Source of the DNA: a virus | Taxonomy: Duplodnaviria > Heunggongvirae > Uroviricota > Caudoviricetes | DNA length: 17,248 nucleotides | Strand: one strand, 5' to 3' | IMG/VR virus record: IMGVR_UViG_2778261313_000007 | In this document: positions 37-11,040 of the stretch, piece by piece | Layout of the letters: every line of letters begins with the position of its first letter | How positions within the stretch are numbered: position 1 is the stretch's first letter | The notes under the pieces: generated by a model | Told to the model about the DNA's origin: nothing | What the model saw: only the letters and a program-made list of their open reading frames with translations | The model's database searches: none | Translations under genes and position numbers: made by a program

Positions 37-1446
37 TTAAGTGATAACAGATGTCTGGAAATATAGGGGCAAATCCAAGAATGGAGCACGGTCACGAGTT
101 ACATCAGAGATATCGGAATAACCTAAACCATTTTTGTTAGCAACAACAACACGACGGTTAAAGGTAATGCCGCCAGATGTGTGACGAACAACATTAACGT
201 TATTAGCGTAGGTATCAAGGACACCATCACCGTTTTGTTTAAATCCAGTATCACTATCGCCTAAAACAATAGAATTTCCACCCAATCCGTTAGCAACACC
301 AACACCAAAACCGCTATTAAACTTAGGAATGGTTGCATCCTGACTAATAGACAGTTGGGGAGCGTTAATTTTACCGTTTACGCTAAACTCGATTGCGGTA
401 GTACCAGGACCGCCAGCACGCTGTGTGTAGAAATGCCAGCCGCTTTCATCTGCGCATTCTAATACTTGTTTACGAGTATCATTACCCCATGCACGAATAT
501 TGAAGCTAGATTGTCCGGTATTCTTACCCCATCTCATTTGACCAGCAACTTCAAGATCACCTAAGAAATATGCCTTTAGTCCACCTGTAGCCATATTACG
601 TTCGGTGCTGAAATGGCGACCTTTGCTGTCTTCGAGGTATAAAACGTTATCACGGGCGTTGTTGCTATCGCCCCAATGATTAAATCGAATATAATCACGC
701 GATCCAGAACGCCCAGCGTCGAAAGTCAAAAAACCTTTCTTAATGTAAACGTCATTACTAAAACGAGCGGCACGGCTTGCACGTTCTAACGTTAATGCAT
801 CTTCGTTACCATCACCGCCTAATTGAACGTTACCGGAAGTCAGATCATAAATGAATGGTCGATAAGTATTCCAACCACCAAACTTATCGTTTTCAGCCGT
901 TGACAGAAGATAAACTTTTGCGGAGTCATTGCGCCAAAATGCACCATAATTGCCGTAAATCATACGGAATGCATTTGAGTTAGCAGCTACATACTCGCCG
1001 TTTGTATATACAATTTTAGTTGCACCAGTGGTAATAGAGCATTGACCGTTAGCTTCTAGCTGAAATGAGTTTTTCCCCTGATCGCTATACCATTGGAAGT
1101 TATTTGTTTCAGCACTACCAAAACCAATCCAACCTTGACGAGCATTAGCACCATTGCGGCGGTCTTGCCATTCAATATAGTTTGATTGATTACTAGGACG
1201 CTCTAATCTAAGAACGTTTTGTCCGGCATCAAATACACCTTTACCAGTAAACATGGTGCGACCAGTGATTCGTAGAACTTCGCTAGAATCGGTAGTACCA
1301 GTCGCTAAACGATAAACGTTACCTTGAACAGTTTCATGCCAGATTGTTTCTGCGGCTTTACTACGGAATTTACGAAGATATTTTTTACCAGTACCTGAAT
1401 CGTTATTCAAACTGACAATATCATATGTACCCTGTCCGTTTATCAA
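37..1446 (-). CDS. tail fibre / receptor-binding protein (distal fibre)
   Basis: 468-codon ORF ending at TAA 37-39. G/N/S/T/D-rich composition typical of fibre tips. Overlaps the upstream fibre gene by 26 nt. The only start near the 5' end is TTG at 1444-1446 (no in-frame ATG for about 60 codons) and there is no clear SD, so the start is uncertain and may be translationally coupled. Confidence 0.6.
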   Translation of the reverse strand: MINGQGTYDIVSLNNDSGTGKKYLRKFRSKAAETIWHETVQGNVYRLATGTTDSSEVLRITGRTMFTGKGVFDAGQNVLRLERPSNQSNYIEWQDRRNGANARQGWIGFGSAETNNFQWYSDQGKNSFQLEANGQCSITTGATKIVYTNGEYVAANSNAFRMIYGNYGAFWRNDSAKVYLLSTAENDKFGGWNTYRPFIYDLTSGNVQLGGDGNEDALTLERASRAARFSNDVYIKKGFLTFDAGRSGSRDYIRFNHWGDSNNARDNVLYLEDSKGRHFSTERNMATGGLKAYFLGDLEVAGQMRWGKNTGQSSFNIRAWGNDTRKQVLECADESGWHFYTQRAGGPGTTAIEFSVNGKINAPQLSISQDATIPKFNSGFGVGVANGLGGNSIVLGDSDTGFKQNGDGVLDTYANNVNVVRHTSGGITFNRRVVVANKNGLGYSDISDVTRDRAPFLDLPLYFQTSVIT

Positions 1447-3082
1447 ACATCAACGTTCCGGCCTTGTTTTCGGTGTTGAACATTGTAATAACACGTCCAT
1501 CTGTAACACCAGTAGACGGCTTAACGTTAGTCATAGCTGGGGTGTCATGAACAGTCAGTGAAACACCGCTAGTCTTACCATATTCGACAATAACGTTATC
1601 AGTATAACGACCGTAGTTAACGTAAATGTCGTAGTTATCACCGGAAGTATTAACCGCAAATACTTGATGAACGTTCAAAGAGTTTCGACGATAAGCAGCA
1701 ATACTAACGCCTTTCGGGTTATTGTTACCGGAACGGATAACAATTTCAAGGAAATCAACCTGATCATAGGAGTTAACGTTATAACCATTACCACCGAAGA
1801 TACGAAGCATTACCATACGACCATTTTGTGGGATCGTAGCCGTAGCAATCTTGAAATAAGCACGGGATTCACTACCAGAAGGAACAGACATTGTGACATT
1901 TTTAATAAACATCTTATCAATTTCGCCTTTGGTATATGCGCCAATTTCAGCAGGAGTCGGTTTATCCCCTTCGTGATACATTTTATAGCTAAACGCTTTT
2001 TGTCCCTGAGCATCAAAACCATAGGTTTCAACACGAGATCCGCCAGACGCATAACGGAAAGTAAATCCTCGACCATGCGCTTTACCGGAAGAGTGAGGAA
2101 CGTTAAGGGTTAGATCCATGAGTCCATCTTGACCATTGGTACGGAATGCACCGAAGTAATTAAGATCTCTCGCGGTTGAATCTTCCAGATAGTTACCAGT
2201 CTTGCTATACAAATACGCGCCGTGATAGGTCTTTGTGTTCTTCTTGATATATGCTGCGTTAGCACTACCTTCAATACCATCAATTCGCTTGTTGGCGGCT
2301 GTAATTGCGGCATCGGTCGATGATTTGTTCTGGTCTACCTTGTTGTTAATAGCGGTATGGTTACTATTCACAGTGCCAGTAAGGTTACTGATTTTAGTAT
2401 CAGCATCTTTCTTGTTGTCGGAAACGACCTTTTCAATCGCTGTTTTGTTAGCTGCAACCGTGCTAGTTAAGCTAGAAATTTTGTTATCTGCATCGGTTTT
2501 ATTTGCAGTAACAGTTTTAGTTAAGTTGCTAACGTTGGTGTTAGTGGTATTAACCTTGTTGTTAATCGCGGTGTTATTGTCAGTGACCGTTTTCGTTAAA
2601 GCTGCATGTTTGCTATCTGCATCAGATTTGTTTGCGGCAACGGTTCTTTCAATTGCGATCTTATTCGCAGATACGGTCCCCGTAAGGTTATTGATCTTAG
2701 TGTCGGCATCGGTTTTATTTGCCGTAACTGTCTGGGTTAAGTTACTAACAGTGGTGTTGGTAGCATCAATGCGCTTATTGGTTGCGGTGTCTTTAGCGGT
2801 AATAGTCTGATTCAGTTCAGCTTTAACACTAGCCAGATTATTAGCGGCCTCTTGTTTGTTGGAAGCAATAACACGGTCAGTGCTAGTTTTATTCTGGTCT
2901 ACTTTCGTGTTAAGTTCAGCGTGTTTTTCTGGAGAAACAGAGATTTGAACTACTGCGTTATTTTTATCTTTGGTATACAGAACGTGATCAGCAAGGTTAA
3001 TAGCCAATTCACCCTGTGATAATTGTTCCGGCGTTGGTTTTTTACCAGCCGTTTGTGTGCGTTTAAATTGGATTGATTGCAT
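1421..3082 (-). CDS. tail fibre protein with T/N-rich repeat shaft
   Basis: ATG at 3080-3082 preceded by GAGGTGA SD, stop TGA 1421-1423. N-terminal motif KKPTPEQLSQGELAINLADHVLY. Central repeats of about 14 aa (TVTANKTDADTKINNLTGTV and variants), visible as DNA-level repeats across roughly 2300-2900. C-terminal globular domain. Confidence 0.7.
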   Translation of the reverse strand: MQSIQFKRTQTAGKKPTPEQLSQGELAINLADHVLYTKDKNNAVVQISVSPEKHAELNTKVDQNKTSTDRVIASNKQEAANNLASVKAELNQTITAKDTATNKRIDATNTTVSNLTQTVTANKTDADTKINNLTGTVSANKIAIERTVAANKSDADSKHAALTKTVTDNNTAINNKVNTTNTNVSNLTKTVTANKTDADNKISSLTSTVAANKTAIEKVVSDNKKDADTKISNLTGTVNSNHTAINNKVDQNKSSTDAAITAANKRIDGIEGSANAAYIKKNTKTYHGAYLYSKTGNYLEDSTARDLNYFGAFRTNGQDGLMDLTLNVPHSSGKAHGRGFTFRYASGGSRVETYGFDAQGQKAFSYKMYHEGDKPTPAEIGAYTKGEIDKMFIKNVTMSVPSGSESRAYFKIATATIPQNGRMVMLRIFGGNGYNVNSYDQVDFLEIVIRSGNNNPKGVSIAAYRRNSLNVHQVFAVNTSGDNYDIYVNYGRYTDNVIVEYGKTSGVSLTVHDTPAMTNVKPSTGVTDGRVITMFNTENKAGTLMFDKRTGYI

Positions 3083-3100
3083 CTAGAATCACCTCACTAT

Positions 3101-3131
3101 AAAACAGGAATAAGGGAGGCGTTAACCTCCC
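3101..3131 (-). terminator. hairpin plus U-tract between the 277-aa gene and the fibre genes (attenuator candidate)
   Basis: GGGAGG-CGTTAA-CCTCCC inverted repeat at 3114-3131. On the minus strand it is followed by UUAUUCCUGUUUU. Confidence 0.4.
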
Positions 3132-3162
3132 CGCGTCATGTTTTATTTAGGTAGGAGAATCC

Positions 3163-3996
3163 TTAGTATTCGCCGAAATCGATCCGGTCAGTCTTAGCCA
3201 CTGCGCCAATTTCGCTAGGTGTCGGTTTCTCGTTTGTAGAATAGACTTTAATCCATTCAGATTTACCGTTTTCCTGAATATTTCGGACGCGTAAACGCGG
3301 TGCGCCAGAAGTATTACAGGTTAATTGCCATGCGCCATGCTCATTAGCTTGAAGATGAATTAACGATGTATCAGCACCATAAGGGTTAGTGCTAGCAGTT
3401 CCCTTGTAAGTTACGAAACGGTTTCCTGTCAGAGATTCACTATCAATAGGACCACTGAAAGGATTTACACCAGCACCGATACCAAAATCACCCTGACGTA
3501 AGATCCGGCCTTCGGTAGCAATACCCCTTGCCAAAATCCCGCCATCTGGTTCAAGTTTAAATTCCAGTGTTACAGCTTTGTTATCTGCGCCACGGGTTTT
3601 GTGACTAGTGACATAAGCGTCATAGATGACATAGTAACCAGTGTTAGCAGCACTATAGCCAGAGTTCACAACATAGAACATACGGAAGCGTAAAGGTGTT
3701 TTATCCTCTACCGCTTTCATCAACATTGCTTGATGTTCATCGTCAAGAACACGGTTTAATGTGAGTGTTGTCGGTTCCAGTCTACGATAACCAGCAAGTT
3801 TCCCCGTAGCGTCCTGATCGTACTCTTCCAGAGTTTCTATCTCTGTGGATTCGGTTAGCGTAGGGAATGCTGCGATGTTCTCCATAGAACTAAAGCTAGG
3901 ATCGAAAAAGTCGACCTGATTGTCTATCTGGTTAGAGATCGACACTTCAACATGTGATCCAGTGAAAATATCTAAGTTATCTTGTGTAATATTCAT
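3163..3996 (-). CDS. virion structural protein, probably tail- or fibre-associated (function unassigned)
   Basis: ATG 3994-3996 with AAGGGG SD, stop TAA 3163-3165. Lies between head-completion-sized genes and the fibre genes. C-terminus carries EKPTPSEIGAV, the same short motif found in the adjacent fibre protein. Confidence 0.45.
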   Translation of the reverse strand: MNITQDNLDIFTGSHVEVSISNQIDNQVDFFDPSFSSMENIAAFPTLTESTEIETLEEYDQDATGKLAGYRRLEPTTLTLNRVLDDEHQAMLMKAVEDKTPLRFRMFYVVNSGYSAANTGYYVIYDAYVTSHKTRGADNKAVTLEFKLEPDGGILARGIATEGRILRQGDFGIGAGVNPFSGPIDSESLTGNRFVTYKGTASTNPYGADTSLIHLQANEHGAWQLTCNTSGAPRLRVRNIQENGKSEWIKVYSTNEKPTPSEIGAVAKTDRIDFGEY

Positions 3997-4005
3997 TATT
4001 ACCCC

Positions 4006-4428
4006 TTAAAAACGCGCTAGATAAGAAAATTTAAGGCTAAGTGTCCCAACGATACCCCCATCACTAGAATCATCGTCATAATCGGTATTAGAGGCTACTG
4101 GAGTGATATCTGAAATAGAGAAGCCCAAATCTTTAAAACGTGGGTTATCCGGCTGAATCTGGATTATCTGGCAAATACCCTCATGGATTTTTGTTTCATG
4201 AATCTGAGAATATAATTGCATTTCGATAACGCATTCAGCTTGCATTGCATTACCACCACGGACCCTAGTGTAAGTCTCATTCATGCCAGTAATCCAACAA
4301 ACCACGTCATCACTAAAACCTTGCTGAGTTTGTTCTACGTTTAAAGCCAGACCTAAATCTTGTTCGATAATATCTTGCAAGGCGCGTTTGATTTTCAGTC
4401 TAGGCATATTATTAACGGTAGCGAGCAT
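4006..4428 (-). CDS. hypothetical small virion protein (head completion / head-tail connector candidate)
   Basis: ORF-track ORF 4006..4476 trimmed to the ATG at 4426-4428 (MLATVNN...), which has a GGGGG SD 5 nt upstream. Overlaps the stop of the upstream gene, suggesting translational coupling. Role inferred from position after the capsid gene only. Confidence 0.45.
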   Translation of the reverse strand: MLATVNNMPRLKIKRALQDIIEQDLGLALNVEQTQQGFSDDVVCWITGMNETYTRVRGGNAMQAECVIEMQLYSQIHETKIHEGICQIIQIQPDNPRFKDLGFSISDITPVASNTDYDDDSSDGGIVGTLSLKFSYLARF

Positions 4429-4702
4429 GTGTACCCCCTGCCAGAGTAATAAAGCAATCAGTGGTATTATCACCATTGCGCTTAACGTATTGAACTTTGA
4501 AACGCTGGTTTTCTACAATGACAATATCACCCTGATTTAAGTCTCCCTCACGACAGAATAGAAATTCGGTTTCTGTCATTACCCCCGATTCGTCGGTAGT
4601 AGTAATTTCATGATAAGCACGAATTGATTTACCACCTTCCACCGAAAATACAGGAGCACTCTTAAACATTCTTGATAATTGTGATTCTGATAATTTGAAC
4701 AT
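4412..4702 (-). CDS. hypothetical small virion protein (head completion / adaptor candidate)
   Basis: ORF-track ORF 4412..4747 trimmed to the ATG at 4700-4702 (MFKLSE...), preceded by AAGGGGG SD. Sits just downstream of the capsid terminator. Role inferred from position only. Confidence 0.45.
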   Translation of the reverse strand: MFKLSESQLSRMFKSAPVFSVEGGKSIRAYHEITTTDESGVMTETEFLFCREGDLNQGDIVIVENQRFKVQYVKRNGDNTTDCFITLAGGTHARYR

Positions 4703-4731
4703 AGTTACCCCCTTTATGGAGTATTTACATA

Positions 4732-4758
4732 CAAAAAAGCCCCGCACTAGGCAGGGCT
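4732..4758 (-). terminator. rho-independent terminator downstream of the capsid gene
   Basis: Minus-strand RNA AGCCCUGCCUAGUGCGGGGCU (7-bp GC-rich stem including one G-U) followed by UUUUUU (plus-strand A-run 4732-4737). Confidence 0.65.
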
Positions 4759-4892
4759 AATTATCATTCTTTAGGCTTGCGGCCTCGTTTTGCTGTGGCT
4801 TTCGCCGTAACCGTCTGGGATTCTTCTTCCGGTTTAGGAATCAGATTTTCTTCCCCCGAATCGGGGGAAGGTTCAGAAGGTTCTACAGGAGT

Positions 4893-6947
4893 TCAGTCAA
4901 CTTTTTTCTGAACTACGGTCAGTGCGCTATGGTCCATAACAGCCCAATCCAGATCAGCCCATACACGGAAGTACAGGTTGCCAGCCGCGCGACCTGTGGT
5001 ATCGTCGCAATCCAGTTCCAGCGATCCGAAGTCTGCAACAACAAGGGAGCTAAAGTCACCAAACAGCATGGTATCCTGAGCAACTACACCAGAGCCATAG
5101 ATCGGACGGTTAACCAGTTTATCGCCTTCTACCAGGAAGCCCGGAACATTAGCTGCTTTGAGTTGCGCTGCCAGTTCAGCTTTAACAACACCACGGGTAG
5201 CAAATGCCAGATCCGCTTCGTTATAACCTTTGTCGGTCAGTTCAGCTACCAGTTTCAGGAACTCGGCATAGGTCCAATCAATCTGTTTAACTTTGCCAGC
5301 GTCGGTCAGGATCTTAGTCAGACCATCACGAGCGTTAGTGTTAGCAGCATTGGACAGAATCGCTTTTTCCAGAGCGATAGCACTGTGTTTCAGCATGTGC
5401 TCACCAACGATAGCGCCAATATTGGGCAGTGTGATTGCAGCCTGACGCGTTACAGGAACAATTCCGTTAAAAGTCTTGAGAGTCATCGGCTGCGCTGCAA
5501 ACTTAATAGTACCTTCACCAGCGGATTGACCTTCTGCAACAAAACCGAAGTTTTCCAGATTGCTGGAAGTCAGAGACGGCAGAGAAACAGGACCAGTTGC
5601 GTTAATGGTACGCACACCCAATTTACCCAGAATAGAACGTTCCATGATCATATCAACGAAGCAATCATGGCGGATTTCTTCACCAACTACTGGTTTCAGA
5701 GATTCCATGTTCTGGCTAGCACGCAGAGCGGACGCCGGAATGAATACGGAGTTAGAACGCTGCGCACGACCACGCGCTGCGGCTTTACGTGCTTCTTCCT
5801 GAGAATATTCAGCTTCTGCGCCAGTCAGGGCTTTACCCTCTGCGATTGCACGTACAGCTTTATTAAGATCGAAACGGGATTCCAGAGTTTTAATGGTATC
5901 GGTCATGGTAATTTTTCCTTTAACAAAAGTTTTAGATTCGGTAGTATTTAGTGCGCGTGCTTTTTCTTTAAAATTTTCAATAGTCACGGCACTATCTTTA
6001 ATTGCAGCTTCAATCACGTCTTCGGAGATATTTAGATGTTTTCCGATAGCACGAATTTCGGCGGTATCTTCGCGAGAACGTTCAAACGGTTTTTCTTCGT
6101 CTTCAATCTTTTCTTCTTCGACTGGTTCGGATGTATTTTCCGTTTCGTCGTTCTCGTCTGTATCTTTATTTAGTTCTTCTGTTTCTTCCGGTTCATCTTC
6201 GGAACGTTCTTCTTTTTCTTCTGGCGTTACTTCTTGCGGTTCTTCCACATCTTCGCCACTGTCAGCACTATTTCCAGAATCGGAATCAATTTCTTCATTT
6301 TCTTGTTCCTCTTTCTCTTCTTCGGAACGTTTTTCTTCATCTTCCGGTTTAATTTCTTCGACCGGAGTATCTTTAATTTCGTCTTCCACTTGTTCACCCT
6401 CCAAAACAATCATTTCGTTGTCTGTATTTAGAGAGCGTCCAACACCCGCATTAAATGGATCTGCGGCACACGTTACAAGACTGCATTCGAAAGGTTGCCA
6501 GCGTGTAACATAATAGATCCCTTTGTTAAAATCGGCTTTGCCATCAAGAACGTTATAACCGACGCTAACTTGTGAAAGTGTTCCCTCTTTTACCTTCTCA
6601 AAGCATTCATTAGCCAGTTGGCCTACTTTGGAGAATTGGACAAGGCAACGACCTACACGGTCTTCGTCAATACGAGCGGAGCCAGGAACAATCTTGCCGA
6701 TATGAAGATCCAGATTGTGATTAAACAGAAGACTTGCGTTAGTCTCGTTTAAAACGGATAGATCAACCGCTGATTCATCGTGTACGAGAATCTCTTTTAA
6801 TTCGACTTGCTCGCCGTCCTGATTCATGTAATAACGTGTATAAGGAGCCTCGCTTGAGAAAGCCAATTCAATAATTCGTTCGTCTTTTTCTTCGATAAAA
6901 TCAGGGGTATCTACCGCAACACTACGACGGAATTGTTTTGTTGTCAT
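4893..6947 (-). CDS. prohead protease / acidic scaffold-like linker / HK97-fold major capsid protein fusion
   Basis: ATG 6945-6947 with AAGGTGA SD, stop TGA 4893-4895. N-terminal roughly 180 aa resemble a caudoviral prohead protease. A middle stretch of about 100 aa is extremely E/D-rich (DNA roughly 6077-6392). The C-terminal roughly 330 aa have an HK97-type capsid pattern. Sits immediately after the portal gene. Domain assignment is from recollection of family patterns, not a search. Confidence 0.75.
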   Translation of the reverse strand: MTTKQFRRSVAVDTPDFIEEKDERIIELAFSSEAPYTRYYMNQDGEQVELKEILVHDESAVDLSVLNETNASLLFNHNLDLHIGKIVPGSARIDEDRVGRCLVQFSKVGQLANECFEKVKEGTLSQVSVGYNVLDGKADFNKGIYYVTRWQPFECSLVTCAADPFNAGVGRSLNTDNEMIVLEGEQVEDEIKDTPVEEIKPEDEEKRSEEEKEEQENEEIDSDSGNSADSGEDVEEPQEVTPEEKEERSEDEPEETEELNKDTDENDETENTSEPVEEEKIEDEEKPFERSREDTAEIRAIGKHLNISEDVIEAAIKDSAVTIENFKEKARALNTTESKTFVKGKITMTDTIKTLESRFDLNKAVRAIAEGKALTGAEAEYSQEEARKAAARGRAQRSNSVFIPASALRASQNMESLKPVVGEEIRHDCFVDMIMERSILGKLGVRTINATGPVSLPSLTSSNLENFGFVAEGQSAGEGTIKFAAQPMTLKTFNGIVPVTRQAAITLPNIGAIVGEHMLKHSAIALEKAILSNAANTNARDGLTKILTDAGKVKQIDWTYAEFLKLVAELTDKGYNEADLAFATRGVVKAELAAQLKAANVPGFLVEGDKLVNRPIYGSGVVAQDTMLFGDFSSLVVADFGSLELDCDDTTGRAAGNLYFRVWADLDWAVMDHSALTVVQKKVD

Positions 6948-6968
6948 AGATCACCTTGAAAATTATTG

Positions 6969-6983
6969 GGGGCATTGCGCCCC
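6969..6983 (-). other. GC-only hairpin between portal stop and capsid RBS
   Basis: GGGGC-ATTGC-GCCCC inverted repeat inside the 42-nt portal-capsid spacer. Confidence 0.3.
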
Positions 6984-6989
6984 GTTGGG

Positions 6990-8513
6990 TTATTCATTTT
7001 GAGTATCAGGAGATTTTTCTTTTTCAGTCTCACCCTCACTCACGACGCATGTATTTAGCATGTGTTTTTCTGCCTCAATTTCTTTAAAGACCTGAGACGG
7101 ATCTTGACCCATTTCCATAATGACCTGAGCTTTAGACTTCAATCCGCTTTCTATTAACAGAACTTCACTCTGAATATCTTTGATCGGTTCAATAGACGTA
7201 ACGCGAGGTCTAATAATTGTCGTTGCATCCAAAATAGAATCGATCTGCGTCATGCGAACATTGATTTTTGAGTTAATTACCGCGTGACGTAAAAACGCCT
7301 CAAATAATGGAAGAATAACAGTATCAACTAAGCGATCTTGATGCGTCTTGAAGCGAGCGGATTCAATATTATGACCGAATTTTGCTGATGAGTAGTTAAT
7401 AGAACTTGTATCTCCTGTAAGAGCTTGTTTAAAGCTAGACAGACCCATAGAAATAGAAGTCAGCATTGCTTCATTGAATTTTTCGAAATCATCGCCGCCT
7501 TGAGTTGATTGTACCGTTTTAACGTCTTGCCCCGGTTCCAGTATATTGATAGTACCCGGTTCGAAGTCAGTGATCATTGTTGGCGGTTGATAGTTTTCCG
7601 TGTCATCTTCACCAACATCAAATGAATCTTGATTTTCTTTATCGCTTGTGATAAAGGCCATGCTGCTTGCGTGCACGCGCTTACCGATTATTACAGTCTC
7701 GCGGAACGCTTCAAGATGAGCTATATCTTTGATTATTGGCAAGAAATCAGTAATACCACGTAATGCGTCGGCTGTACCAGGGATAAAGTAATGCAGCACT
7801 CTTTCCGCCGGGATTCGTACACGTTCGCCAGTAAAGGACTGAGTAAACAGGTCACGACGCCTAAACCAATATGCAACGGGCTTTTCATCTTCATATTCGA
7901 TGCCAGCGTAAACGACATTACCGTTATCTAAGGTGCGCTGATCTGACCAATCAACACAATCCGCACCATAAATGGATACTTGCAGATCCTTACCATCTTC
8001 ATGGAGTACCAGAAACGCATCACCACCCATCACGCGCTCTTTTTCCATCAACTTTAAGCATTCAAGGAAGTTAATCTTTCCGATGCGCGAGAATCGTTTC
8101 TGAGAGCTAGCCCAACGCCAAAAAGCATTCTCAATAGCGGTGTTAGTGGTTGCGTCCAGCTTTTCCCCTTTCATAACGAAGGTTCGAGGCTGTAAGCCAG
8201 TACCTACCACGGAATCAATAACGTGTTGGCAATAACGGGAGCCAATAGAAGTGTTTAACGCAAGATAACGGCCTTGATTGTATAGACGTGATGCGGACCC
8301 CTTAATCGCGCTGTTAATGCTGCCAGTGATGACATTACGCGCCATACTTCCTTCAATGCGGTCGCTTTCAACCAATCCCAAAGAGCGTTTATGTAAGTCT
8401 TTGGTAAATTCTTCAATCTTGCGATCTACAAATAATTTGCGGTGTTGGCGAATACCGATTTTCTTAACCGGATTCACGGGCATATCTTTTTTGCGTTTGA
8501 AAAAATTAAACAT
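6990..8513 (-). CDS. portal protein (lambda gpB-like family)
   Basis: ATG 8511-8513 with AAGGA SD overlapping the stop of the upstream gene, stop TAA 6990-6992. 507 aa, located between terminase and capsid. The stretch ISMGLSSFKQALTGDTSSINYSSAKFG resembles the lambda-family portal core as I recall it. Confidence 0.7.
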   Translation of the reverse strand: MFNFFKRKKDMPVNPVKKIGIRQHRKLFVDRKIEEFTKDLHKRSLGLVESDRIEGSMARNVITGSINSAIKGSASRLYNQGRYLALNTSIGSRYCQHVIDSVVGTGLQPRTFVMKGEKLDATTNTAIENAFWRWASSQKRFSRIGKINFLECLKLMEKERVMGGDAFLVLHEDGKDLQVSIYGADCVDWSDQRTLDNGNVVYAGIEYEDEKPVAYWFRRRDLFTQSFTGERVRIPAERVLHYFIPGTADALRGITDFLPIIKDIAHLEAFRETVIIGKRVHASSMAFITSDKENQDSFDVGEDDTENYQPPTMITDFEPGTINILEPGQDVKTVQSTQGGDDFEKFNEAMLTSISMGLSSFKQALTGDTSSINYSSAKFGHNIESARFKTHQDRLVDTVILPLFEAFLRHAVINSKINVRMTQIDSILDATTIIRPRVTSIEPIKDIQSEVLLIESGLKSKAQVIMEMGQDPSQVFKEIEAEKHMLNTCVVSEGETEKEKSPDTQNE

Positions 8514-8522
8514 GTTAAATCC

Positions 8523-9020
8523 TTATCGAGTTAAGCGTACTTTAATCGGTGTAATTGGTGAGTAATTGCCAGCCTTGCGCCGTTCTTGCTGAATGAGTTT
8601 TACGAGTTGTTTTTCGTAATCCCTTTTCAGTTGTTGTAAAACCGCAATTGACTCGTAGGTAAACGAATTACCCTTTATCGTCATTGCAGATAACGCACTT
8701 TCATCATTGGCTAGGCGCGCATAGATGGTATTTTCGATTAAAGCAATCGTTTCGCGCAGATATTCTTTTTTGGATTGTTTGGCGAATACTGGCAATACAG
8801 TTAATTCCTGCATTGATACCAGTTCTTCTTCCAAAGTGGTTACGATGGTATATTTACCCTCGGCAAAATCTAAGGTTTTAATCTCGTGATTAGCCGGAGT
8901 ATCATCAACCTGATAAATGATACCTTTACTATTTCCTACCTGAATTGTTACACCCTCTTCATTCGCCAGCGTGATTTTTTCACCTTTACGAATTACTAAG
9001 GGAATTAGTTCTAAACTCAT
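8523..9020 (-). CDS. hypothetical protein between terminase and portal
   Basis: ATG 9018-9020 with AAGGGG SD, stop TAA 8523-8525. 165 aa, no motif recognised. Tightly packed with and probably coupled to the portal gene. Confidence 0.5.
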   Translation of the reverse strand: MSLELIPLVIRKGEKITLANEEGVTIQVGNSKGIIYQVDDTPANHEIKTLDFAEGKYTIVTTLEEELVSMQELTVLPVFAKQSKKEYLRETIALIENTIYARLANDESALSAMTIKGNSFTYESIAVLQQLKRDYEKQLVKLIQQERRKAGNYSPITPIKVRLTR

Positions 9021-9066
9021 AATTACCCCTTATTTAATTGTTATTGGATTAACAATATTTAGGAGT

Positions 9067-9087
9067 AAGCCGCCCCGAAGGACGGCG
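9067..9087 (-). other. UUCG-loop hairpin downstream of terL (processing/stability or weak terminator)
   Basis: Minus-strand RNA GCCGUCC-UUCG-GGGCGGC directly after the terL stop, with no strong U-tract. Confidence 0.35.
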
Positions 9088-9092
9088 AGTTA

Positions 9093-10997
9093 TTAGAACG
9101 ATGTTACCCAGCTACGGCCTCTATTTGGGCGTCTGGCGATGTTTTGACGTTGTGGTCGTGTGATTGGCTTAGTTTCTTCGATTTGCTCGTCAGATTGCGT
9201 TTCAGGAGCTTTTACGGGTTCTTCTGGTTCACGGTTCAAACTATCTTTGATGGCTTCGAGTTTTTCCCATGACATTTTATTGAGTACATGGCGAGAAGCA
9301 GCATAGGAATAAGCCAGGCAGTCGAGAGCCTCGTTTCGTTGCTGACCAACTTTTACCCAACGTGTGGTATTACCCTGCCGTTTCAACTGTTCAGAAAGCA
9401 ATTGCTCGCAATAGTCATCAGGAACGTCACCAATCTGGAAGACAGTATGAGGATCGCCATCTCTCAAGTTCCGGTTAATCATTTCACGGATCATCGTCTT
9501 AAGGTTGTTTACGCCCAGAATTTTGAGAGTAAAACCGCCCGTTCTTGTGTCCTTAGCCGGAAGGATTGGAGCATCAGCATTACTTGCGCCTTTAATGGCG
9601 CATAGGTTTTGCCACCTAGTGCAAAAACGGTAGATCACGTTTGTAGCTCGTCCGTTCGATGAGTCCACGAAAGCAGATAGCATCGGGATTCGTTCACCGG
9701 ATCGGGTATAGAATTTCGCTTTCAGGAAGTTATAAAGCTGGTCATATGCTGGTGATTCGTGGCGTTCGCAGTTCACATCATAGAATGATCGGTGATCAAC
9801 TACGCATATCCCCTTACGAGAGATACCCAGCAAGGTAGATTCCAGACGGTCTTTTTGCTGGTCAACTCCACCTACCAGAGCCAGTACATCATCAGGAATA
9901 TTGTCTAGGCTAATATCAGTTTTCAGCGTTTCCAGTTCGTCGGCTGTGCGATCTTCGTTAAGATCATCGAAGGTTTCACCGAGGACTGTATTGTAGAACG
10001 TTGCTAGTGACATATTCGCGTAGCTATCAGCAAAGTCCACCACACACGCACGGATAGAACTAAACGGAGACATAAGGCGGTTAGCATGAAAACCGATTAC
10101 TTCCGCATTTGGTTCCGTAGCAATCCATTCACCTTGAGCAACAGCACGTAGGCGATCCCCTTCTGTCCAATCAGTTTCACATGACGGGCAACGATAAACG
10201 GCAGTATCTGGATTCGGCAGTGATTTACAGTTAATCGTATGCCAATCAAAGAAAACTCTACTCCATTCCATTACGTGCTTGTGTCCGCAATGCTGGCAAA
10301 CGACATGATATTTTCTCTTATCCGAGAGTTCCCATTGTTGGTTAATCGCCCCATCACGAGCGGTTGGAGTGGAAGCAATTACGATCCTTGCATCTTCCCC
10401 GAAAGTGGTTGCGCGTTGTTCCGCTAGCTGGATCGGGTTCCCTTCGTCTGACTCATCAGCCGCATCAACTTCATCAAGAATAATCAAAGGGAGTGTTTTA
10501 CCGCGAAGATGTGACGGACTATTCAACGACATGAAATACATAAACGATCCGTTACGAAGCTGAATAATCGATGAGTTGTTAACGGCATTGCGATCTGATT
10601 TGTCGGTGATCATCGCCTTTAATTCTGGTGTTGCCTCTAATACTGGCTTCACCTTACCAGCGATCCAGCTATTCAACTCGCGGACATTCGATTGCAACAC
10701 CCCGATATTAGTAGGGTTACTCGCGATCCGATGGAAGATAATTCCGTTAAGAATCATGGTCTTACCCAACTGCGCCGAACATTTAAACACAATTTTTCTA
10801 CGGTCTTCGGTGATCGCGTCCATCATTCCACGTTGGAAGGGATGCAATTTAATTAGCGATCCGGCTTTAACACCATCGGTCGCAACTACATTAGCCTCTA
10901 CCCATTCGCTAGGTTTCATGGTTTTAGGTGGACGAATTGCAGCAGAGATATTTTTGAGAATCTTTTTTAATTTTGCCTTATTAGAAATCAGTTTCAT
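9093..10997 (-). CDS. terL: terminase large subunit (GpA-like)
   Basis: ATG 10995-10997 with GAGGGT SD, stop TAA 9093-9095. 634 aa. Deviant Walker A KCSAQLGKT, Walker B LPLIILDEVDA, Cys pair motifs CQHCGH...CPSC (zinc-ribbon-like), and a C-terminal acidic nuclease-like region. First gene of the structural operon. Confidence 0.85.
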   Translation of the reverse strand: MKLISNKAKLKKILKNISAAIRPPKTMKPSEWVEANVVATDGVKAGSLIKLHPFQRGMMDAITEDRRKIVFKCSAQLGKTMILNGIIFHRIASNPTNIGVLQSNVRELNSWIAGKVKPVLEATPELKAMITDKSDRNAVNNSSIIQLRNGSFMYFMSLNSPSHLRGKTLPLIILDEVDAADESDEGNPIQLAEQRATTFGEDARIVIASTPTARDGAINQQWELSDKRKYHVVCQHCGHKHVMEWSRVFFDWHTINCKSLPNPDTAVYRCPSCETDWTEGDRLRAVAQGEWIATEPNAEVIGFHANRLMSPFSSIRACVVDFADSYANMSLATFYNTVLGETFDDLNEDRTADELETLKTDISLDNIPDDVLALVGGVDQQKDRLESTLLGISRKGICVVDHRSFYDVNCERHESPAYDQLYNFLKAKFYTRSGERIPMLSAFVDSSNGRATNVIYRFCTRWQNLCAIKGASNADAPILPAKDTRTGGFTLKILGVNNLKTMIREMINRNLRDGDPHTVFQIGDVPDDYCEQLLSEQLKRQGNTTRWVKVGQQRNEALDCLAYSYAASRHVLNKMSWEKLEAIKDSLNREPEEPVKAPETQSDEQIEETKPITRPQRQNIARRPNRGRSWVTSF

Positions 10998-11040
10998 GTA
11001 ATTACCCTCATTACGAAATATGAAGGTATTTATTAAATTG

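Follow-up and report, generated by a model that had tools for sequence, protein, structure and literature searches.

How a single gene could furnish a tailed phage with its prohead protease, scaffold and capsid protein is the question raised by a 684-codon open reading frame (ORF) on the minus strand of IMGVR_UViG_2778261313_000007. This IMG/VR record of a virus of the Caudoviricetes is 17,248 nucleotides (nt) long, and the whole of it is referred to below as the window. A first-pass annotation, prepared from the letters alone, had described the ORF as a prohead protease, a very acidic linker and a major capsid protein in one chain, and both the ORF and its two Pfam domains were confirmed. The explanation that we moderately favor is a fused polyprotein whose pro-region, made up of a spacer and a helical scaffold, is digested, with a further product probably initiated at an internal GTG, codon 187. 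Among fused genes of this kind the query is notable for its unusually long, acidic linker. The only new point of our analysis is the likely internal start, seen in the sequence features around codon 187, which would give a protease-free copy of the protein.

Domain organization of the fused protein

Profile searches gave a match above threshold at each end of the protein. Peptidase_S78 (PF04586) aligned to amino acids (aa) 59-162 with 39.6 bits against a cutoff of 21, and Phage_capsid (PF05065) to aa 427-680 with 53 bits against a cutoff of 24.2. The narrower equivalog profile TIGR01543 scored 35.8 and did not reach its threshold of 59. The fold found for the N-terminal domain is assemblin/gp21-like. 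Alignment of the domain to gp4 of HK97 and to four distant fusions left ten invariant columns, among them H77, S128 and E154; H77 stands opposite gp4 H65 and S128 opposite gp4 S114, the pair that mutagenesis is reported to have identified as catalytic. Both residues are also invariant across 32 fusions of 24-72% identity. By fold and by aligned residues the N-terminal third is a prohead protease, as had been claimed, and its proteolytic role is predicted.

The assignment of the C-terminal part to the major capsid protein held equally well. TIGR01554 scored 44.2 against a cutoff of 27.5 over aa 313-680, and the sole sequence match in the PDB was chain A of 8GTA, the capsid protein of roseophage vB_DshS-R4C (E 9.5e-12 with the single sequence, 3.9e-30 with the family profile), covering query residues 421-679. 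Foldseek, run on the C-terminal part of the full-length AlphaFold2 (AF2) model, which is of moderate confidence there, returned 192 PDB matches at E ≤ 1e-3, the top 50 all being capsid proteins and encapsulins; the capsids of 8gta, HK97, D3, P4 and 80alpha/SaPI1 were matched with probability 1.0. Ala476 lies opposite the HK97 crosslinking residue Lys169 in a weak BLASTP alignment (26% identity, in a loop region), a residue that is not needed for the fold. Structure prediction recovered the HK97 fold, helices and a disordered linker; contacts between the domains were unreadable and were set aside, the full-length model being too poor for this purpose.

A known structure suggests what becomes of the chain. 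Gene 006 of R4C (L002 1909-3798) has 629 codons and the same order of protease, linker, helices and capsid. The chain deposited for its mature T=7 capsid, 8GTA_A, covers residues 362-629 and no others; their counterparts in the query, by alignment, are residues 417-684. The R4C structure paper counted 415 copies in the T=7 capsid and treats gene 006 simply as the major capsid protein, the 361 N-terminal residues being unmentioned. Because the deposited R4C chain starts at G362, which aligns with query L417, we infer that about 416 of the 684 residues, those N-terminal to about 417, are discarded and that a subunit of about 268 aa is left. The earlier proposal that the linker is removed from the capsid agrees with the solved R4C chain, by homology only. 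Four Arg-Ser dipeptides (KRS208, ERS249, ERS291 and QRS398) were considered as cleavage sites and rejected, as QRS is replaced by QGET in relatives P0021-P0024 and no specificity of the protease was found.

Acidic spacer and helical segment

Between the two domains lies the acidic stretch, 114 residues (183-296) that include 43 Glu, 13 Asp and 8 Lys, the others being mostly Ser, Thr, Pro, Asn, Val and Ile. The earlier description of about 100 residues of nearly pure E/D/K was right as to acidity (49% Asp+Glu) and overstated as to purity, as these three residues make up 56%. In the full-length AF2 model residues from about 160 to 290 have no secondary structure and a predicted local distance difference test score (pLDDT) of 23-31. 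Nearly all members of the enterobacterial family keep an acidic stretch of 104-122 aa with 33-49% Asp+Glu, and within this low-complexity stretch the islands EIKPE, RSEE and NEE..SDSGN are conserved. Three relatives of 85-93% identity (P0002, P0003 and P0004) have lost 35, 52 and 68 aa through in-frame deletions that fall wholly within it. The end-points of these deletions lie at or beside the units of a degenerate repeat of about 59 nt, present in three copies at spacings of 117 and 123 nt, each coding for an EE(K/E)RSE(E/D) unit. These copies came from a separate repeat search; a tandem-repeat search of the linker gave two trivial short arrays only.

In distant fusions the linker is of another kind: that of R4C is rich in Pro and Ala and that of phiHAP-1 in Thr and Gln, ep3 has a mixed one, and the DCP80 linker is acidic but helix-like. 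Among 69 cluster representatives with mappable domain boundaries the median linker has 48 aa and is 25% acidic; that of the query, with 114 aa and about 48-49% Asp+Glu, is the longest and the second most acidic. We read the acidic stretch as an extreme, lineage-specific, length-tolerant tether rather than an ordered scaffold, because it is predicted to be disordered, varies in length and is replaced in distant fusions.

The first-pass annotation had proposed that this linker is a scaffold resembling the delta domain of HK97, and here its choice of sub-segment was probably wrong. A delta domain is a conserved helical pro-region directly N-terminal to the capsid N-arm, a description that fits aa 292-391 and does not fit aa 183-296. 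The former residues are predicted to form six helices, interrupted by a low-confidence gap at aa 333-349 in the AF2 model, and the TIGR01554 alignment begins within them, at aa 313 (profile position 5). Two motifs, AEIRAIG and RFDL..AVRA, are common to the query, R4C, phiHAP-1, ep3 and DCP80. The helices are the better candidate for a delta domain or scaffold because they are the conserved element between protease and capsid fold; their role in assembly is predicted from the model and the alignments.

The composition of the spacer also marks its DNA. On the plus strand, positions 6001-6500 have an AT skew of -0.38 and a GC skew of -0.20, that is, the coding strand is purine-rich, and within the spacer several of its frames are free of stop codons. 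Positions 6060-6401 are overlapped by four ORFs of 60-206 aa, three on the plus strand and one in another minus-strand frame, which bears out the earlier remark that spurious ORFs arise here on both strands. No Pfam match was found for the three of them that were scanned (206, 73 and 60 aa); the fourth is a 65-aa ORF at 6234..6431. A 340-aa antisense ORF over the capsid domain was rejected as a gene candidate, its sole Pfam match, to DUF4783, being below threshold (E 0.0064).

A candidate internal start

In-frame start codons of the gene were scored for pairing to the anti-Shine-Dalgarno (anti-SD) sequence of 16S rRNA, and two only reached a free energy (dG) of -6 or below, the annotated ATG (-6.9) and GTG codon 187 (-9.8). 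This GTG stands just past the protease domain, right where the acidic stretch begins; its product would be a protease-less acidic-helical-capsid protein of 498 aa. Within the query's own family the GTG is kept at +22 to +24 codons in every peptide context (LEGEQV, DGDEKV, NEEQREV and IEGNDV), and the SD-like element before it reads GGAGG, GGGG, GAGGA or GAGGG.

Comparable elements are found in distant fusions, where positions are counted in codons after a protease anchor motif: GGAGGA-ATG at +24 in R4C, AAGGA-ATG at +21 in DCP80, GAGGA-ATG at +22 in phiHAP-1 and GAGGA-ATG at +40 in ep3. Two further loci (L010 and L011) have an SD plus ATG at +21, and another (L012) an SD plus start at +32. Across 59 non-redundant fusion loci we counted an ATG or GTG with an SD-like element at +10 to +45 codons. 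With dG ≤ -5.5 such a site was present in frame in 34 of the 59 loci, in frame +1 in 7 and in frame +2 in none (Fisher p 2.4e-7); with dG ≤ -6.5 the corresponding counts were 20, 4 and 0 of 59 (p 4e-4). In-frame starts with an SD reached 15-18% in the first 60 codons past the anchor, compared with an average of about 6% over the rest of the genes. The signal persists to lineages of 24% identity, which argues for selection and not for a relic.

Whether the protease-capsid fusion genes of many tailed phages, the present one among them, are nested genes, with an internal start some 20-25 codons past the protease domain, is to our minds evenly balanced. On that nested reading, and with no greater confidence in it, the relative strengths of the two ribosome-binding sites would set the number of proteases per procapsid, and the acidic stretch would be the N-terminus of the internal product. 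We found no report of nesting inside protease-capsid fusions in the part of the literature that was accessible to us.

Proposed head assembly and alternative explanations

The full-length product would consist of an HK97 gp4-type protease with His77 and Ser128, an acidic tether of about 110 aa, a helical scaffold of about 100 aa and the capsid protein. In procapsid assembly the HK97-fold domains would make the shell, with helices, tether and protease facing inward, and the covalent link would bring the protease into the procapsid, standing in for a targeting signal. An inward pro-region, activation of the protease after assembly and exit of the fragments belong to the established assembly pathways of HK97, lambda and T4. 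The protease would likewise be activated after assembly and would cut neighboring chains as well as its own, so that everything N-terminal to about residue 417 would be digested and the fragments would exit before DNA enters; the remaining capsid subunit of about 268 aa (about 29 kDa) would then expand upon DNA packaging. More speculatively, the acidic tether may maintain a negative charge in the interior, keep nucleic acid out of it and aid expulsion. Ribosomes probably also initiate at GTG187, and the resulting 498-aa scaffold-capsid subunit might set the protease:capsid ratio, which is again speculative. If real, the internal start would explain how fused genes avoid about 415 proteases and about 19 MDa of pro-region per T=7 procapsid.

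Several observations weigh against this explanation. Purine-rich DNA that codes for acidic residues readily yields GAGG and GGAG motifs, GTG is a weaker start codon, the SD of the Salmonella relatives is merely moderate (dG -6.3), and 25 of the 59 fusion loci have no internal SD plus start even at the lenient threshold. Over its full length the AF2 model averages a pLDDT of just 54, a low confidence. No sequenced phage comes closer than 36.6% identity, processing in the prophage is predicted by homology, and the R4C paper does not discuss processing, so that its 268-residue chain could be merely the part that was modeled.

The first-pass annotation had pictured the full-length polyprotein as the only product, with the acidic stretch as a delta-like scaffold cut in cis by its own protease. 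Many scaffolding proteins are acidic, the stretch is retained in nearly all of the enterobacterial family, the ORF is uninterrupted with a good SD at its annotated start, and the 25 loci that have no internal site fit this simpler scheme. We nevertheless regard it as rather unlikely, as the stretch is predicted to be disordered and close relatives tolerate long deletions in it, R4C, phiHAP-1 and ep3 do without it while the helices that follow are the conserved part, and the conserved in-frame SD and GTG at its beginning make one gene with one product doubtful. The acidic peptides could instead act after assembly: they might stay in the head and be injected, as polyanionic mimics of DNA or as counter-ions, in the manner of the acidic internal peptides of T4. 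In favor of this idea are the conserved islands within the stretch and its net charge, which at -44 per chain adds up over the roughly 415 chains of a T=7 head (the R4C count); the variable length of the stretch, its absence from most fusion lineages and the fact that the R4C structure paper describes no part of the N-terminal region make it very improbable.

An elaboration of the nested arrangement would add a third co-terminal product, a 337-aa capsid precursor from ATG codon 348, so that separate protease, scaffold and capsid genes would be reproduced within one ORF alongside the full-length and GTG187 products. The element AAGGA-N9-ATG is kept in all eight family DNAs, including the rare GGA glycine codon; DCP80, L010 and L013 retain AAGGA-ATG despite differing encoded residues (KG, KE and KD); codons 336-344 are identical in 8 of 8 sequences, with those after 348 variable; and M348 comes after the low-confidence break between two helical sub-segments. 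Yet the SD is weak (dG -5.6), M348 occupies the conserved hydrophobic L/M position of the peptide motif IG[LM][ST]D, which has no SD in distant fusions, and codon conservation is raised across the whole of segment 288-350, so the signal is not specific to ATG348. On these grounds M348 was rejected as the main internal start, and we consider a three-product gene improbable. That the fusion is itself a defect, whether a decayed prophage gene or two genes joined by an assembly or frameshift artefact, might be suspected from the neighboring tail-fiber gene, which looks split in the window and could mean that the prophage is not fully intact. This explanation is already refuted, as hundreds of prophages in Salmonella and E. 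coli have this fused ORF, which is also present in the great majority of cluster representatives and in every untruncated viral-contig locus (counts are given below), and in R4C, phiHAP-1 and ep3, cultured phages whose virions have been studied. The fused polyprotein with a probable GTG187 product is the reading we retain.

Distribution of protease-capsid fusions

The first-pass annotation had presented the single-gene layout as a departure from most tailed phages; among relatives of this gene it is the rule. A HMMER search of 1.84 billion cluster representatives gave 3742 matches at E ≤ 1e-3, with both domains in 143 of the top 151 sequences, and all 85 untruncated loci in IMG/VR extend at least 336 aa beyond the protease anchor motif, i.e. 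are fused. The fused layout is widespread and already named: PHROG 4523 is called 'major head and protease protein', phage records in GenBank carry the names 'major capsid and protease fusion protein' and 'major capsid protein and peptidase U35', and 'Capsid and protease fusion' recurs in SEA-PHAGES genome announcements. The NCBIfam model NF045541 (scaf_prot_MCP2), 'prohead protease/major capsid protein fusion protein', matches at positions 3-298 (E 4.5e-38) with 131 bits against a curated cutoff of 525, and its capsid half is unaligned. Judged by this alignment, the query is of a lineage of fusions other than that of NF045541.

Some relatives are larger. Two proteins reach 830 aa (P0218) and 4451 aa (P0233), and in six viral contigs (L030, L023, L054, L029, L053 and L070) a stop-free frame runs 350-620 aa upstream of the protease domain. 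The ORF in L030, from nt 1418, has a Met start and repeated RPYPNEHAAR and GDFVSWN.SGG.ARG modules. These suggest still larger fusions, e.g. of a MuF-like or minor head protein with protease and capsid.

No match to the gene came up in a megablast search of 50,697 phage records, and the best tblastn match among phages was to Escherichia phage DCP80 (36.6% identity). The DCP80 record (L003, PQ671644.1 1798-11780) is classed as a 141-kb Tevenvirinae phage, yet at its beginning stand genes for a terminase resembling that of lambda, a 161-aa product, a portal and the 666-aa fusion, and the genes of this module are all annotated 'hypothetical protein'. The module looks foreign to a T4-like genome, and the record may be a chimeric assembly.

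Genomic context

On the same moderate footing as the assembly pathway, we consider this the head-morphogenesis polyprotein gene of a temperate siphovirus-type E. coli prophage. Its immediate upstream neighbor is a lambda-family portal gene (6990..8513), with the large terminase gene at 9093..10997 farther upstream, and PHROG profile phrog_617 matches aa 12-681 of its 684 (E 1.5e-68). The features of the locus are collected in Table 1. The hairpin between the portal and fusion genes may attenuate or stabilize the transcript.

Table 1. Features of the fused gene and its flanks, in window coordinates
Feature	Position	Strand	Details
Terminator-like hairpin with T-run	4738..4758	-	135 nt downstream of capsid gene stop
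Whole ORF, 684 codons: protease, acidic spacer, helical segment, HK97-fold capsid protein	4893..6947	-	ATG start; stop codon 4893-4895
HK97-fold major capsid protein core, aa 417-684, predicted mature subunit	4896..5699	-	8gta_A match, Foldseek
Conserved helical segment, aa 292-391, six predicted helices	5775..6074	-	AF2 block-mean pLDDT about 70-87
Weaker internal-start candidate: AAGGA, 9-nt spacer, ATG codon 348 (5904-5906)	5904..5920	-	dG -5.6
Acidic, predicted-disordered spacer, aa 183-296	6060..6401	-	49% Asp+Glu, net charge -44; pLDDT 23-31
Degenerate ~59-nt repeat, copy 3 of 3	6060..6118	-	encodes ...EDEEKPFERSRED...
Degenerate ~59-nt repeat, copy 2 of 3	6177..6235	-	encodes ...PEEKEERSEDE...
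Degenerate ~59-nt repeat, copy 1 of 3	6300..6358	-	encodes ...PEDEEKRSEEE...
Candidate internal start: GGAGG (6398-6402), 8-nt spacer, GTG codon 187 (6387-6389)	6387..6402	-	dG -9.8
Prohead serine protease domain, aa 1-172, S78, HK97 gp4 type	6432..6947	-	H77 codon 6717-6719; S128 codon 6564-6566
SD-like AAGGTGA of annotated ATG (6945-6947)	6951..6957	-	duplex dG -6.9; kept in 7 of 7 family DNAs examined
GC-rich hairpin: GGGGCGCAATGCCCC, then CAATAATTTT	6969..6983	-	in the 42-nt gap from portal stop to fusion-gene start

E. coli HCP5S3_I4 carries positions 3000-11000 of the window on its chromosome at 100% identity. The only genome copy of this identity (NZ_CM149869.1 2464099-2473435) is about 1.3 kb longer than window positions 3000-11000 and contains an IS2-family transposase, so the window is, or represents, a version of the same prophage free of the insertion sequence (IS). 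The same fused gene is present in 55 of 5426 complete E. coli genomes and is always chromosomal. In strain PE15 it lies within a complete siphovirus-type prophage, in the order terminase, 165-aa head-tail joining protein, portal, fusion gene, three small genes, 1234-aa tail-fiber-like gene, tail tube, tape measure and tail tip. Among 5.8 billion proteins searched there were 477 homologues. The best 120 of these 477, mostly from Salmonella enterica and E. coli, are 53-98% identical and 616-694 aa long, almost all with both Pfam domains, and among the homologues listed only P0031 does not have both. The Salmonella loci have kept the gene order.

In RefSeq these prophage genes of E. coli and Salmonella are entered simply as 'phage major capsid (family) protein', a name that conceals the protease as well as the part of the chain, roughly 60%, that is probably cut away. 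The label also affects estimates of capsid mass and studies of defense systems that sense capsid proteins or proteases. Literature searches found no experimentally characterized close relative and no cleavage-site study; publications on an Stx2 phage, on CBASS (cyclic oligonucleotide-based antiphage signaling system) and on XM1 had no bearing on the fused architecture.

The neighborhood of the gene varies. The tail-fiber-like gene, a single 1234-aa ORF in PE15 (L001 12359-16063), corresponds in the window to two overlapping ORFs in different frames within 37-3082 on the minus strand, 1421..3082 (553 aa) and 37..1446 (469 aa, TTG start), which may reflect a frameshift, a pseudogene or a different fiber cassette. 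Its place between the head genes and the tail-tube genes is an odd location for a fiber. In several Salmonella relatives the capsid gene is immediately followed by a gene of about 346 aa whose product has DUF723 and CapR domains (L007 8195-9235, L091 2680-3037 and L093 2701-3085); at the corresponding site of the window, 4738-4892, there is just the 135-nt spacer that ends in the terminator-like hairpin. The spot looks like a moron insertion site, and the gene could be defense or regulatory cargo. The PE15 prophage (NZ_CP041628) also carries, on its early/regulatory side, the colistin resistance gene mcr-1.1 and a PAP2 gene between two copies of ISApl1 (L001 29994-34647).

Comparison with known systems

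The nearest counterparts are the fusions already known from phages (PHROG 617/4523; 'major capsid and protease fusion protein' in SEA-PHAGES), among them R4C gp6, Halomonas phage phiHAP-1 gp5, Escherichia phage ep3 gp31 and those of the Rhodobacter phages RcRhea and RcCronus. They share with the query an S78 protease, linker, helices and HK97-fold capsid in one ORF located directly behind genes for a portal of lambda type and a small head-tail joining protein. The H, S and E of the protease recur in them too, as do the helical-segment motifs; identity is only 22-37%. The NF045541 fusion and the query have in common the principle of the fusion and their N-terminal half; the capsid half does not align.

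In HK97 the protease gp4 and the capsid protein gp5 are products of two genes, unlike the single gene here, and yet the protease family, the aligned His and Ser and the capsid fold are the same. The gp5 delta domain, like the helices of the query, is a helical pro-region before the N-arm that is expected to be digested off, although the HK97 pro-region has 102 aa as opposed to about 230-416 aa here. HK97 gp4 enters the prohead through a C-terminal targeting tail, a job that the covalent link would do in the query. Hairpins flank the module in both phages, and a putative terminator annotated at the gp3/gp4 (portal/protease) junction of HK97 is the equivalent of the hairpin upstream of the fused gene.

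Nested protease and scaffold genes are established in lambda (C/Nu3) and in herpesviruses (UL26/UL26.5 of HSV-1). The archaeal virus HFTV1 has a nested protease and scaffold, gp17/gp17.5, shown by ribosome profiling (bioRxiv 10.64898/2026.09.13.751334). With all of these the query shares an in-frame start, in its case a candidate, just past the protease domain and, as a prediction, a co-terminal and more abundant product that lacks the protease. In lambda, herpesviruses and HFTV1 the capsid protein is encoded by a separate gene, whereas the nested product of the query, as deduced from its sequence, would run on through the capsid protein. If real, it would be a third variation on the nested protease/scaffold theme common to phages, herpesviruses and archaeal viruses.

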